Program-made: the position numbers and the translations under genes | DNA from: a virus | Lineage: Duplodnaviria > Caudoviricetes | DNA: 63,666 nt | IMG/VR virus record: IMGVR_UViG_3300021438_000015 | Span: 1 to 63,666 of that record | Reading direction: 5' to 3' (one strand) | Shown here: piece by piece, positions 702-7,263 of the stretch | Position numbering within the stretch: the first letter of the stretch is position 1 | How the letters are laid out: each line of letters opens with the position of its first letter | Notes under the pieces: generated by a model | What the model was told of the DNA's origin: nothing | Seen by the model: the letters and a program-made list of their open reading frames with translations, nothing else | The model's database searches: none

Positions 702-761
702 TGGCATGGTGTTCGCGGCCCGCCCCGCTGTTTCTAAATCCTTATAGAGAAAGGACTTACG
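702..761 (+). promoter_or_regulatory. sigma54-like box + GC core + 27-bp palindrome element
   Basis: TGGCATGGTGTTCGC (702-716), GGCCCGCC, then CTAA-ATCC-TT-N7-AA-GGAC-TTAC (734-760). Confidence 0.6.
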
Positions 762-775
762 AATAGAAAAGAAAA

Positions 776-849
776 CGAGAATGACGGGACTTGAACCCGC
801 AACCTCTAGCGTGACAGGCTAGCGATCTAACCAGTTGATCTACATTCCC
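776..849 (-). tRNA. trnD: tRNA-Asp(GTC)
   Basis: Cloverleaf GGGAATG...CATTCTC, anticodon arm CTAGC-CTGTCAC-GCTAG, T-loop TTCAAGT; no encoded CCA. Confidence 0.95.
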
Positions 850-851
850 AA

Positions 852-923
852 TAGCCCCACGGAGGATCGAACTCCGATCTCCACCTTGAAAGGGTGGTGT
901 ACTAGCCATTATACAATGGGGCC
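852..923 (-). tRNA. trnE: tRNA-Glu(TTC)
   Basis: GGCCCCA...TGGGGCT acceptor, anticodon arm CCACC-CTTTCAA-GGTGG, GTTCGA. Confidence 0.95.
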
Positions 924-926
924 ATA

Positions 927-1000
927 ACACACAGGGTAGGATTCGAACCTACACAGAGCAAATTAACAGTTTGCGGCACTACCATTATGCTACCTGTGTA
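927..1000 (-). tRNA. trnN: tRNA-Asn(GTT)
   Basis: Anticodon arm GCAAA-CTGTTAA-TTTGC, T arm GTAGG-TTCGAAT-CCTAC. Confidence 0.93.
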
Positions 1001-1003
1001 AAA

Positions 1004-1075
1004 ATGCCCGACTAGGATTCGAACCTAGAAACGACGGAACCAAAATCCGTTGCAGTACCATTGTGCTATCGGGCA
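1004..1075 (-). tRNA. trnQ: tRNA-Gln(TTG)
   Basis: TGCCCGA...TCGGGCA acceptor, anticodon arm ACGGA-TTTTGGT-TCCGT, TTCGAAT loop. Confidence 0.95.
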
Positions 1076-1079
1076 ATAA

Positions 1080-1152
1080 GGCCAGTGGCCGGGAACGATC
1101 CGGCGACATTTGGTTTACAAAACCAACGCTCTACCAACTGAGCTACACTGGC
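1080..1152 (-). tRNA. trnT: tRNA-Thr(TGT), atypical T-loop
   Basis: GCCAGTG...CACTGGC acceptor, AGCTCAGTTGGTAGAGC D-arm, anticodon arm TTGGT-TTTGTAA-ACCAA, T-loop ATCGTTC. Confidence 0.92.
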
Positions 1153-1185
1153 GACCACGTAACTCAAACGTCAGCCTCCAAGATC

Positions 1186-1214
1186 ATTATACACTTTTTC
1201 TAGGGTTTTGTCAA
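1186..1214 (-). promoter_or_regulatory. sigma70-type promoter of tRNA cluster
   Basis: Perfect TTGACA-N17-TATAAT; also contains GTGTATAAT late-type motif. Confidence 0.85.
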
Positions 1215-1221
1215 GCAGATT

Positions 1222-1231
1222 GTGTATAGTA
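1222..1231 (+). promoter_or_regulatory. putative late promoter GTGTATA
   Basis: GTGTATAGTA a few nt before the HNH ATG; same motif precedes the late operons. Confidence 0.5.
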
Positions 1232-1235
1232 TTAT

Positions 1236-1778
1236 ATGAAAAAGAAATGTCCACAATGCGAATTAGAACTACCATTAACGAATGAGTACTTTCATAAAGA
1301 CTCTCGTTCTATTAATGGTTTTCATTCTTCATGTAAAAAATGTCGTTTGCACAAGTCTAAACTATCAGCATCTAATTTAGAAGCTAAACAACGAAAAGCA
1401 GAATATAGAAAACAAACCAGAGATCACATTAGAGAATATAAAAGGATATGGGAGCAAAATAGAGCAAAAACACATCCAGAGTTTAGAATAAAAACATCTC
1501 TCAGGCGTCGTATACATTCAGTAGTTAAATTTGGTCATAAAGCAGACAAAACATTTACATTGTTGGGCTGTTCTTTAGAGTATTTCATTGCCTATTTAGA
1601 AAGTAAATTCCAAGATGGCATGACTTTAGATAACTATGGGCAATGGCATATAGATCATATACGCCCTTGCTCTAGTTTTGATTTAATGGATCCAGAACAA
1701 CAACGACAGTGTTTTCACTATACTAATCTTCAACCCTTATGGGCAAAAGATAATCTATTGAAAAGCGATAAGTTTTAA
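1236..1778 (+). CDS. HNH homing endonuclease with N-terminal Zn finger
   Basis: N-terminal CPQC...CKKC; C-terminal WHIDHIRPC...CFHYTNLQPLWAKDNLLK HNH motif. Confidence 0.85.
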   Translation: MKKKCPQCELELPLTNEYFHKDSRSINGFHSSCKKCRLHKSKLSASNLEAKQRKAEYRKQTRDHIREYKRIWEQNRAKTHPEFRIKTSLRRRIHSVVKFGHKADKTFTLLGCSLEYFIAYLESKFQDGMTLDNYGQWHIDHIRPCSSFDLMDPEQQRQCFHYTNLQPLWAKDNLLKSDKF

Positions 1779-1779
1779 A

Positions 1780-1941
1780 CTATTCCCCATCGCCATAAAT
1801 ATTATACCACTCCCCGCTATCATCATAATCTACAATGTCCGCATCACATTCAAGTTCTTCATATTCATCGTAATCGGGAATATATGACAGGTGTCTCATA
1901 ACATTCTCGTTGTATAGAACATGATCAATATCGCGGGACAT
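1780..1941 (-). CDS. small acidic hypothetical protein (53 aa)
   Basis: Hand translation MSRDIDHVLYNENVMRHLSYIPDYDEYEELECDADIVDYDDSGEWYNIYGDGE; RBS AAGGAG; own promoter. Confidence 0.7.
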   Translation of the reverse strand: MSRDIDHVLYNENVMRHLSYIPDYDEYEELECDADIVDYDDSGEWYNIYGDGE

Positions 1942-1978
1942 TATAATCTCCTTATGATGATGGTAGGGGCATATCTCT

Positions 1979-2007
1979 ATTATACTCTATACACGGGAGG
2001 TTATCAA
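1979..2007 (-). promoter_or_regulatory. sigma70-type promoter
   Basis: TTGATA-N17-TATAAT. Confidence 0.7.
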
Positions 2008-2079
2008 TGGGTCATGTAGGATTCGAACCTACAACCAACGGATTAAAAGTCCGATGCTCTACCATTGAGCTAATGACCC
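2008..2079 (-). tRNA. trnK: tRNA-Lys(TTT)
   Basis: GGGTCAT...ATGACCC acceptor, anticodon loop CTTTTAA, GTAGG-TTCGAAT-CCTAC. Confidence 0.95.
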
Positions 2080-5801: not shown

Positions 5802-5969
5802 TCAAAAAGTTTCCAGAAGATCGAAATCTTCCCAACCACTAATCTCTACCGCATCGTATACGGTTCGACCAACCAGAAAAGCCGACCCAATCGGCACAAT
5901 CTCGAAAGTCTTTCCATTTTCACCATACAACCTAACCAACTCACTCTGGATATCTTCAATGTAAACCAT
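5802..5969 (-). CDS. small hypothetical protein downstream of sigma54-type promoter
   Basis: MVYIEDIQSELVRLYG...; purine-rich leader AAGAAAGAGAGAG. Confidence 0.6.
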   Translation of the reverse strand: MVYIEDIQSELVRLYGENGKTFEIVPIGSAFLVGRTVYDAVEISGWEDFDLLETF

Positions 5970-6003
5970 TTTCAACTCTCTCTTTCTTATGTCTATATAT
6001 AGA

Positions 6004-6018
6004 GCAATCGGTGTGCCA
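6004..6018 (-). promoter_or_regulatory. sigma54 (-24/-12) promoter
   Basis: TGGCACACCGATTGC, exact TGGCAC-N5-TTGC, 35 bp upstream of ATG 5969. Confidence 0.7.
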
Positions 6019-6090
6019 AACATAGATTATTTTTTTGTGCGTTTCGACCGGGAAAAACGCTATGACATTTTTTGTGCTTAGTTTTTGAGC

Positions 6091-6169
6091 GTAGCATTTT
6101 GCAACACCCTGTAGCATTTTGCGTTAGTGATTTCGGCCATGAAACTGAGGTAGTGTAGCATTTTGCAAC
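6091..6169. repeat. three GTAGCATTTTGC(AAC) repeats, enhancer (UAS)-like
   Basis: Copies at 6091, 6111 and 6155; imperfect palindrome GTAGCA-TTT-TGCAAC. Confidence 0.75.
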
Positions 6170-6221
6170 GGTCTACCTATCTTACCATGCCTCTTTTGTA
6201 GGCGTGCGATTTTTTATTCCA

Positions 6222-6357
6222 CGGCACGGATTTTGCGTTGATACTCGCTCTAAGTCCTTATGCCACAATGGTTTACGTCAAACGCGGCCCGCCGGATTCG
6301 CCCTAAGTCCTTATGTAGCAAGGGTTTAGGTTAAATCCTAGGGCAAACGGTGTGCCA
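6222..6357. promoter_or_regulatory. dyad-symmetric element: two convergent sigma54 boxes enclosing paired palindromes
   Basis: CGGCAC-N5-TTGC (+, 6222-6236), 13 bp, palindrome 6250-6276, GC core, palindrome 6303-6329, 13 bp, TGGCAC-N5-TTGC (-, 6343-6357). Confidence 0.75.
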
Positions 6358-6365
6358 TTCAGATT

Positions 6366-6380
6366 TGGCACGATATTTGC
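6366..6380 (+). promoter_or_regulatory. sigma54 (-24/-12) box, antisense to genes
   Basis: TGGCACGATATTTGC exact consensus. Confidence 0.6.
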
Positions 6381-6557
6381 TCACCCGAAATATTGCTCTT
6401 CCCAAAAGTCCTCATCATACCCCTCTTCCTCATCTTCCCAACCTTCCCCATCGTCAAGGCCAGCAATGTAATCTGCCTCGTCTTCCATTTCTTCCCAACC
6501 CCTATAGATTTCCTCTTCGTTGATTTCCGACATATCGTAGATGAAATCGTTGTTCAT
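6381..6557 (-). CDS. extremely Glu/Asp-rich small protein
   Basis: MNNDFIYDMSEINEEE...EDEEEGYDEDFWEEQYFG; AAAGGT RBS. Confidence 0.7.
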   Translation of the reverse strand: MNNDFIYDMSEINEEEIYRGWEEMEDEADYIAGLDDGEGWEDEEEGYDEDFWEEQYFG

Positions 6558-6580
6558 TTGTATACCTTTGGGTTTAGTGT

Positions 6581-6706
6581 TCAACCGTTCATGAACCGAA
6601 TAGCATCTTGGGAAGTCTTGAACGTTCCCATCAACCTACGCTTACCGTTTTCCATTTCGCGGTAAACCTTATACTTATTCCCGATCATGATCAGAACCAG
6701 ATTCAT
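6581..6706 (-). CDS. 41-aa basic hypothetical protein
   Basis: MNLVLIMIGNKYKVYREMENGKRRLMGTFKTSQDAIRFMNG; follows promoter and purine-rich leader. Confidence 0.65.
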   Translation of the reverse strand: MNLVLIMIGNKYKVYREMENGKRRLMGTFKTSQDAIRFMNG

Positions 6707-6730
6707 AACTTTCTCTCTTTCTTTCCCTGT

Positions 6731-6759
6731 ATTATACTTATCGGCTTTTATCGTGTCAA
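6731..6759 (-). promoter_or_regulatory. sigma70-type promoter with GCCGATA box
   Basis: Perfect TTGACA-N17-TATAAT with GCCGATAAG in spacer. Confidence 0.85.
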
Positions 6760-6778
6760 GCCCCTAGGAAATATTTTT

Positions 6779-7000
6779 TCAACGAATCGTAATCAGTCCG
6801 TTGAAGTGTGAGAAGGTAAGGGTAAGAGTCTGAGAAGGATACTTCTCGTTGATATACTTCTGTGCAGTACTCTTACGGTTATCCGTAGCAGCGACACACT
6901 GTACAACTGTACCATTCTTATCCGTAACCTTCCACACCTTTTTCTGTACGATACGGGGAAGGCTACCAATGAAATCGTTGATATGAGTTGTCTTTTCCAT
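6779..7000 (-). CDS. hypothetical protein (first gene of leftward region)
   Basis: 73-aa ORF after promoter and AG-rich leader. Confidence 0.75.
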   Translation of the reverse strand: MEKTTHINDFIGSLPRIVQKKVWKVTDKNGTVVQCVAATDNRKSTAQKYINEKYPSQTLTLTFSHFNGLITIR

Positions 7001-7030
7001 TTTCTTTCTCTCTTTCTTTCTTATGCTCTT

Positions 7031-7058
7031 ATTATACCATACTTATCGGCTATGTCAA
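7031..7058 (-). promoter_or_regulatory. sigma70-type promoter with GCCGATA box
   Basis: TTGACA-N16-TATAAT with GCCGATAAG. Confidence 0.85.
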
Positions 7059-7118
7059 GGGGCAATCTCAAATATTTTTAAATATAATCTTGTGCCAAAG
7101 CAAGAAATATTCTCTAGA

Positions 7119-7133
7119 GCAAATGCTGTGCCA
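7119..7133 (-). promoter_or_regulatory. sigma54 (-24/-12) box
   Basis: TGGCACAGCATTTGC exact consensus. Confidence 0.6.
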
Positions 7134-7182
7134 AATATATTATTCTCTTAAACAGAAGATCGACACGATCATATCATTAGTC

Positions 7183-7263
7183 GTAAGTCTATACCCTATA
7201 AGGGTTTACGTCAAAAATTTCGGGGCGTATGCGTCGTAAACCTATACCCCACAAGCACTTACG
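7183..7263. repeat. paired 27-bp palindromes
   Basis: GTAA-N4-AT-N7-AA-N4-TTAC at 7183 and 7236 (53 bp apart). Confidence 0.8.

Follow-up and report, generated by a model that had tools for sequence, protein, structure and literature searches.

The DNA analyzed here, hereafter referred to as the window, is the whole 63,666-bp piece of an uncultured virus record (IMGVR_UViG_3300021438_000015; Caudoviricetes), whose completeness is approximately 40%. The early region of the window contains a family of 27-bp palindromes, partly arranged as twins at one fixed distance. From their geometry, their phasing to promoters, and the contexts in which they occur, we infer, with confidence slightly above even, that a dimeric protein, architectural or regulatory, binds them as phased sites and acts on early transcription. 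An original prediction, made from the letters of the window, had taken the palindromes as phased binding sites for a DNA-bending protein or a recombinase that delimit gene cassettes. The DNA-bending part agrees with the rigid geometry, the independent arms, and the promoter phasing described below, whereas the recombinase part is weak for this phage.

Geometry and conservation of the palindromes

The pattern S-TAA-N4-WT-N7-AW-N4-TTA-S has eight exact matches in the window, starting at positions 734, 2737, 2790, 4078, 6250, 6303, 7183, and 7236, and none in the whole window when read backwards. The motif might have been equally frequent in shuffled sequence, but 100 dinucleotide-preserving shuffles give a mean of only 0.26 matches and at most 2. 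All eight sites lie within 734–7262, and the late region is free of exact sites, as had been noticed originally. Three pairs each start exactly 53 bp apart, and a GC core lies midway in each pair, 9 nt from the flanking palindromes. The core is GGCCCGCC at 717, 2773, 4061, and 6286 and CGGGGCG between 7209 and 7236. The single copies at 734 and 4078 also possess the GC core at 9 nt, together with a sigma-54-like box starting 32 bp upstream (TGGCAT-N5-TCGC from 702 and TGGCAC-N5-TCGC from 4046). In all these points, the first description of the sites is correct. Only its ninth, degenerate palindrome (2661–2687) is doubtful, because one-mismatch matches number 16 in the window against 8.35 expected by chance, so that about half of the matches at that stringency are chance. 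This site overlaps the ribosome-binding site and the start of the open reading frame (ORF) 2481–2657, and its distance from the palindrome at 2737 is 76 bp, not 53 bp. The whole phage probably has more than eight sites, since the window begins inside the early region and relatives hold further copies to the left. Including the conserved GAC/GTC or GCC/GGC flanks, the site is approximately 33 bp long.

Three relatives (G001, G002, and G003), found via the neighboring protein encoded at 7643–8422, contain 12, 13, and 1 sites, respectively, with no match in the backwards control. In the complete 166.6-kb genome of G002, in which the "terminal repeat" is just 123 bp, all 13 sites are located inside 142.1–159.2 kb, its early region. 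Such confinement to the early region (8/8 in the window and 13/13 in G002) argues for selection on position. The expectation that the 53-bp spacing is conserved in relatives is borne out by three pairs in G001 and four in G002, mostly orthologous to places in the window. One exact arm word was further found in at least 120 viral contigs, and the counts given below for viral loci hold among the matches listed. In 1.10 Mb of these loci, the pattern matches 513 times, with neighbors 53 bp apart in 104 cases and 52 bp apart in 33. The arms are conserved over these contigs, while the centers and cores vary freely.

The fixed spacing should be noted, since doublets at one invariant spacing are reminiscent of REPINs. 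The palindromes could be selfish repeats, such as repetitive extragenic palindromic (REP)/REPIN doublets or miniature inverted-repeat transposable elements, that spread in non-essential intergenic DNA with no function for the phage. The gain and loss of copies between relatives, the duplication of a pair-bearing module in G002, and the sporadic occurrence in bacteria (the exact word is found in a single one of 301 sampled genomes belonging to the phylum of G004) are consistent with such repeats. However, no match to the Y1 (RAYT) transposase (PF01797) is found in the window or in G001–G003, and most copies occupy orthologous places in the window, G001, and G002. The arms are maintained in at least 120 contigs in spite of the variation in centers and cores, and the phasing to promoters together with the confinement to the early region argues for selection on position. 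Since selfish spread explains neither the phasing nor the stable positions, we regard it as quite unlikely.

Half-sites were also sought without fixing the spacing between them, giving approximately 950 per strand in 1.18 Mb of related viral DNA. Inverted half-site pairs with a 7-nt spacer, as measured between the 9-nt arm cores, number 380, of which approximately 120 are guaranteed by the way the loci were collected and the remainder are not; every other spacer from 0 to 30 nt occurs at most twice among the listed loci. Paired palindromes are separated by 28 nt in 94 cases and by 27 nt in 21. The palindromes could in principle act as RNA hairpins, that is, as terminators, processing sites, 3' stabilizers of early units, or 5' hairpins of sigma-54-driven transcripts, but a loop length fixed at 7 nt speaks against this explanation. 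The same holds for the sequences of the arms. In 324 unique sites, no covariation is found at positions 7/21, 8/20, and 9/19, and 116 sites (36%) are mismatched at 8/20 without compensation. Positions 5–6/22–23 are even anti-correlated (101 complementary versus 175 expected, p ~1e-19), with GT in one arm and AC in the other. This anti-correlation could reflect an inherent asymmetry of a protein site or, alternatively, G-U pairs formed on one strand.

The strand on which the palindromes pair gives a mixed picture. It is antisense to early transcription in 35 cases and sense in 14, contrary to what is expected of an RNA element, whereas among 24 modules oriented by a sigma-54-type box, sense-strand pairing of the second palindrome (14 modules) outnumbers antisense pairing (5), in favor of a hairpin. 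Window copies located just past gene or tRNA ends (24, 1, and 14 nt) also favor RNA. When the five window elements were folded as RNA on both strands, 7 of the 10 folds were no better than those of shuffled sequence (|z| ≤1.25), and the site at 4078 has no plus-strand fold at all. No U-tract follows the window elements, and a terminator scan flagged 0/5; the stable GC-rich hairpin with a U-tract that defines an intrinsic terminator is not found in the phage copies. Overall, the RNA explanation is unlikely, though it keeps some weight, and a terminator role stays alive because bacterial copies are followed by T-runs, as described later. A protein on duplex DNA is preferred because of the rigid spacing, the independent arms, the weak RNA folds, the conserved flanks that extend the site to approximately 33 bp, and the helical phasing.

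Helical phasing and promoter contexts

Among 146 pairs with enough flanking sequence, a strict sigma-70-type promoter match in a flank fires away from the pair in 64 and into the pair in 4. The distances from the palindrome edge to the TTGAC of the −35 box are not evenly distributed but peak at 19–21, 29–31, 39–41, 49–51, and 60–64 nt, with further peaks at approximately 83, 93, and 104 nt. Among 173 unique arrangements, a period of 10.65 bp fits best, and the 132 distances between 10 and 70 nt give a Rayleigh R of 0.58, while the maximum in 2000 random sets is 0.35. Clustering the arrangements at 65% identity leaves 114 clusters, for which a period of 10.5 bp fits best and R reaches 0.46, as compared with a random maximum of 0.39. 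Taken together with the 53-bp spacing, which corresponds to five turns, the phasing indicates that the −35 box and the two palindromes keep a fixed rotational relation. Such phasing is characteristic of double-stranded DNA and speaks against RNA hairpins, and it is likewise left unexplained by recombination.

The palindromes are also associated with sigma-54-type boxes. In 679 kb, made up of the 66 loci that have three palindromes or more, TGGCA[CT]-N5-TTGC occurs 117 times versus 1.3 times in block shuffles, an approximately 90-fold enrichment. Spacers of 3, 4, 6, 7, and 8 give only 1–5 matches and the backwards pattern gives none, so that the associated boxes have the canonical TGGCAC-N5-TTGC spacing of sigma-54 promoters. 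The predicted transcription start is located 10–19 nt before the palindrome center in 41 box-palindrome pairs and 60–69 nt before it in 36. In smaller groups, the palindromes are found at approximately −80 (10 pairs) and −130 (8 pairs) from the predicted start. There are 47 distinct modules in which a box is followed after 12–17 nt by a palindrome, and in most of them a 26-nt GC-rich spacer and a second palindrome follow. In all five cases in which a sigma-54-type box and an outward sigma-70-type promoter are both present, they are found on the same side and arranged back to back, and the box takes approximately three extra turns.

These observations can be combined into the following arrangement. 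The 27-bp palindromes would be double-stranded DNA sites of a dimeric, sequence-specific protein that bends or organizes DNA. The two dimers of a twin element, separated by five helical turns and by a stiff GC-rich block, would face the same side of the helix, and a whole number of turns would lie between the assembly and a strong sigma-70-type early promoter downstream that fires away from it. Some copies lie directly downstream of a sigma-54-type box firing into the element. The putative function is that of a nucleoprotein module tuning or insulating early transcription units by activation, shut-off, or a block of read-through. Each arm is conserved over approximately 13 contiguous bp. This conservation and the surroundings of the sites (sigma-54 promoters, integrase att regions, and positions upstream of strong phage promoters) suggest a binding protein that wraps or bends DNA.

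Elements in the early region of the window

The early region (1–7300) is on the minus strand and contains six tRNA genes, many small ORFs, and 16 strong sigma-70-type promoter matches. Plus-strand genes begin at approximately 7460 and include a sigma factor (8383–8907), a large terminase, and a 2284-amino acid (aa) tape-measure protein. The G+C content is 42–44% in this early region and 39–44% when 1–8000 is taken, as compared with 30–39% across most of the late region. Rfam detects only tRNAs over 1–8000. In a DNA comparison with a phage collection, cultured relatives match at tRNAs only, and a 96-bp pair gives a single chance match in that collection; the identity of the terminase to those of cultured phages is at most 25–30%.

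The leftmost element consists of a sigma-54-like box (702–716, plus strand), the −12 end of which abuts the GC core (717–724), and a single palindrome (734–760). The palindrome has orthologous copies in G001 and G002, where the box reads TGGCAC-N5-[AT]CGC. It follows tRNA-Asp (775–850, minus strand) after 14 nt, and a minus-strand promoter (679–652) has its −35 box 54 nt away. The twin element at 2737–2816 is composed of palindrome A (2737–2763), the GC core (2773–2780), and palindrome B (2790–2816). It lies 24 nt past the stop codon of ORF 2841–3245 (minus strand) and 19 nt from the −35 box of a minus-strand promoter (2717–2690). Orthologous pairs are found in G002 and G001, the latter with the two arms of palindrome A exchanged end for end. 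The second single element (4046–4104) contains a sigma-54-like box (4046–4060, plus strand), the GC core (4061–4068), and a palindrome (4078–4104) that abuts, at a distance of 1 nt, the stop codon of a 25-codon minus-strand ORF (4106–4183). This element is also orthologous in G001 and G002.

The twin at 6250–6329 (palindrome A, 6250–6276; GC core, 6286–6293; palindrome B, 6303–6329) belongs to a non-coding module of approximately 420 bp, which is the module duplicated in G002. A weak sigma-54-like box, CGGCAC-N5-TTGC (6224–6238, plus strand), fires into palindrome A, and its G002 copy is a perfect box. A perfect sigma-54-type box, TGGCAC-N5-TTGC (6343–6357, minus strand), fires into the pair from the right, 13 nt from palindrome B. 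Another perfect box (6366–6380, plus strand) fires away from the pair, the centers of which are at approximately −75 and −128 from the predicted start. The last twin (7183–7262) is located in a divergent control region, with palindrome A at 7183–7209, the core CGGGGCG at 7219–7225, and palindrome B at 7236–7262. Palindrome B is lacking at the same place in G001, G002, and G003. A perfect sigma-54-type box on the minus strand (7119–7133) has this pair at approximately −88 and −141 from its predicted start.

The idea that the elements delimit gene cassettes agrees with their positions alone, and only for a subset, as there are five element loci versus 16 strong minus-strand promoters in 1–7500. 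In the comparison with G002, none of 12 breakpoints of gene gain or loss lies 100 bp or less from an element, and in that with G001, 5 of 18 do.

Several other features of the window were noticed. GCCGATA[AT] lies in or beside the spacer of several sigma-70-type early promoters on the minus strand (664, 2701, 3985, 4641, 6738, and 7043). It occurs 11 times in the window versus 2.3 expected, recurs in most promoters of related contigs, and may be a second promoter element. A further perfect sigma-54-type box on the minus strand (6004–6018) precedes ORF 5802–5969, and three exact copies of GTAGCATTTTGC (6091, 6111, and 6155; 0.01 expected by chance) are located approximately 75–165 nt upstream of it. 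The box and these copies look like a complete enhancer-dependent promoter, judging from their arrangement. On the other strand, GTAGCATTTTGC resembles a LuxO-type TTGCA-N3-TGCAA site. A terminator-like hairpin with a T-run on the plus strand (6186–6215), inside the non-coding stretch 6020–6250, hints at a short plus-strand transcript among minus-strand genes.

Two very small hydrophobic ORFs of 25 and 33 codons (4106–4287, minus strand) lie opposite the sigma-54-like box at 4046–4060. The box would fire antisense into them, a layout that, speculatively, recalls a type I toxin-antisense pair. A 180-aa plus-strand ORF (1236–1778) breaks into the minus-strand early region between a tRNA promoter and ORF 1780–1941, and the stretch 995–1976 has no counterpart at the same place in G002. 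An HNH-like motif is visible by eye in this ORF, for which Pfam gives no significant family. In the late region, GTGCCA is repeated seven times at an exact 33-bp period (34,395–34,598) within ORF 33,868–35,250, a pattern that presumably corresponds to an 11-residue protein repeat.

Bacterial copies and candidate binding proteins

The perfect palindrome word is also found in at least 120 bacterial genome contigs, mostly of spirochetes and planctomycetes, versus approximately nine estimated by chance. The bacterial scan was seeded with one exact word, and the matches listed comprise 121 sites in 120 loci. The word is sporadic; five spirochete chromosomes have one copy each, and five other genomes have two or three. 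Among the 121 sites, 44 are located 0–40 nt (mostly 0–7 nt) after the 3' end of a tRNA or transfer-messenger RNA (tmRNA) gene, 14 of them after tRNA-Asp, and none is located before one. A similar position is taken by 8 of 546 palindromes in the phage loci, which follow a tRNA, tRNA-Asp in six of them; the window site at 734 is among these. A T-run (at least six T in 9 nt) then follows 28 of the 44 tRNA/tmRNA-linked bacterial sites, giving them the look of RNA terminators. No sigma-54-type box is found near the 121 listed sites, and Rfam found nothing in 10 bacterial loci. The idea of a link to ribosomal RNA (rRNA) promoters, according to which three Kapaibacterium copies would precede rRNA operons, was dropped after the Rfam look at bacterial loci.

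The commonest neighboring gene in the listed bacterial loci encodes a tyrosine integrase, at a distance of 70–180 nt from the palindrome in 16 of the 120. The order is tRNA, palindrome, and integrase in 14 of these 16, and the other two have no tRNA call by aragorn. In the loci L149–L268 (e.g., L165, L201, and L220), short direct repeats often follow the palindrome, and then the tyrosine integrase, in an arrangement resembling an attL arm. In one chromosome, a 40.5-kb element (G008) is bounded by a direct repeat of approximately 75 bp, which runs from the anticodon loop of tRNA-Asp through the palindrome to a T-run, so that the palindrome is inside the repeat at its far end.

These loci bear on the explanation that the palindromes are core-type sites for a tyrosine recombinase of the host or of a resident element, by which early cassettes are swapped or inverted. 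The likeness to recombinase core sites that had been pointed out stands as far as the anatomy is concerned, since inverted arms of approximately 10 bp flank an invariant 7-bp spacer, within the 6–8 bp of an overlap region. The neighboring integrases, the location inside the repeat of the 40.5-kb element, the arms swapped end for end between the orthologous G001 and G002 sites, and the presence of palindrome B at 7236 in the window but not in three relatives could also be explained in this manner. On the other hand, PF00589 has no match in the window, G001, G003, or the complete G002, while the control search matched 14 of 14 control genomes. The breakpoints mostly miss the elements, as described above, and in the mapped bacterial element identity starts at the tRNA anticodon loop, the usual place of crossover, whereas the palindrome is at the far end beside the T-run. 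As with selfish repeats, neither the phasing nor the stable positions are explained, and we consider recombination at these sites very unlikely.

The preferred reading, a dimeric protein that binds the duplex, requires a binder, which was sought among the genes near the palindromes. The commonest neighbors over the 66 viral loci are the sigma factor (29 loci), the protein P0001 (28 loci), and a 109-aa early protein (25 loci). In Pfam and PHROGs searches, the early and neighboring ORFs show no DNA-binding family except the sigma factor (8383–8907) and a weak regulator-like N-terminus in the product of 8894–9679. The latter is P0001, a conserved protein of 261 aa encoded beside the sigma factor. 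Its model (predicted local distance difference test, pLDDT, 82) combines long helices with a three-helix bundle at the N-terminus, and its resemblance to the HK97 small terminase is weak (Foldseek probability 0.9–0.99, E ~0.25). Judging from the model, P0001 is probably a packaging protein; the large terminase gene is located 5 kb from 8894–9679. The model of the 109-aa early protein (pLDDT 73) matched nothing in a structure search, and sequence searches against the PDB and a protein atlas gave nothing for the neighbor proteins. A binder shared with the bacterial island was considered and rejected, as BLASTP at E 1e-3 or better matched no ORF of the 40.5-kb element to the window, to G001, or to the part of G002 that was compared. 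No paper containing both arm words in a relevant context was found in the literature, supplementary files aside.

A homodimer of the HU/IHF family supplied by the host is the leading, though tentative, candidate for the binder, and a phage protein outside the known families has a similar probability. IHF sites are known beside phage early promoters, sigma-54 promoters, and attP cores. The IHF consensus is WATCAAnnnnTTR (PMC10380432). The resemblance to it that was originally proposed is partial; the half-site TAA-N4-TT[A/G/T] overlaps the TAAnnnnTTG part, but the full consensus is present in only 23 of the 324 sites. The palindromes are similar to IHF sites in length (approximately 33 bp), in the TAA-N4-TTR arms, and in their dependence on the helix face, and share with them the company of integrases, sigma-54-type boxes, and phage early promoters. 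Contrarily, the IHF sites of Escherichia coli are asymmetric, whereas the palindromes have dyad symmetry with a conserved arm on both sides, and many of them are downstream, not upstream, of a sigma-54-type box. A closer parallel in symmetry may be Hbb, a homodimeric HU/IHF-family protein of Borrelia, which is reported to bind near-palindromes with a base on the symmetry axis (PMC2811001). Its sites were reportedly tested for elements of the IHF consensus, and one candidate site is upstream of a −35 box; the likeness to the palindromes is one of description, not of site sequences.

Two other known arrangements are worth comparing. The promoter-early stem-loop (PeSL) cassettes of T4-like phages are described as composites of a terminator and a promoter and as points of homologous exchange (PMC4122927). 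They share with the palindromes a short composite structure, a dyad beside a strong early promoter (here the 64 of 146 pairs with a sigma-70-type promoter match firing away), and recurrence in a large lytic phage between small genes that are early or accessory. Unlike the cassettes so described, the dyads here are weak hairpins with no U-tract in place of stem-loop terminators, the geometry is rigid, twinned, and helically phased to the promoter, and the breakpoints mostly miss the sites instead of marking exchange points. The phage itself, with its 2284-aa tape-measure protein, is not T4-like. In phi29, with its sites for protein p4, and in cluster A mycobacteriophages, with their stoperators, a block of genes is switched or silenced through many copies of one protein site, placed near promoters or in the gaps between genes. 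Their sequences and geometry are different from those of the palindromes, and their binders are known phage proteins, whereas no phage candidate was found here.

Several points weigh against a dimeric protein acting on early transcription. The profile searches of the window and G001–G003 detected no HU/IHF and no XRE-type helix-turn-helix protein, nor a sigma-54 factor (PF04552) or its activator domain (PF00158), and the searches for PF00589 and PF01797 described above were equally negative. P0001 and the 109-aa early protein, the best-conserved neighbors, give no lead to a binder. As for IHF itself, CAR-N4-TTR is found in 231 of 648 half-sites, always in the same register, and the full consensus is as rare as given above. 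The four "N" positions of the consensus are conserved in the palindromes, which is atypical of IHF sites, and +1 to +27 of a sigma-54 promoter, where palindromes occur, is not a normal position for IHF. Arms of the GT..GT or AC..AC type are preferred, so that G-U pairs are retained on one strand, as one-strand pairing of an RNA would give, and the T-runs after the bacterial sites point in the same direction. The promoters, transcription starts, and tRNAs are predictions or pattern matches, and the viral loci were gathered with one exact word. In the window, only the element at 2737 (19 nt) falls into one of the main phasing peaks, the phasing being a statistic of the clade.

A broader form of the protein reading is possible, though clearly on the less probable side, namely that the palindrome is a high-affinity, dyad-symmetric site of a widespread bacterial HU/IHF-type homodimer and is exploited by two kinds of mobile DNA. 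Islands integrating at tRNA genes in spirochetes and planctomycetes would place one copy beside the att core, while a large clade of uncultured lake and marine phages would have multiplied the site into phased twin "bend modules" folding approximately 100 bp. Through these modules, host sigma-70 early promoters would be linked to sigma-54 promoters lying back to back with them, to form a switch or insulator between early units that depends on host factors.

If a protein does bind the palindromes, they would represent a widespread and so far undescribed way to organize phage early transcription. In this layout, a rigid two-site, five-turn module is kept on a fixed helical face upstream of strong promoters and is coupled to sigma-54-type promoters, a route that, to our knowledge, is rarely reported in phages. 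The phasing makes the idea testable with simple promoter constructs. The occurrence of the same word by tRNAs and integrases in distant phyla would point to a shared host factor and would thereby give a handle on the hosts and the regulation of phages that are known only from metagenomes.

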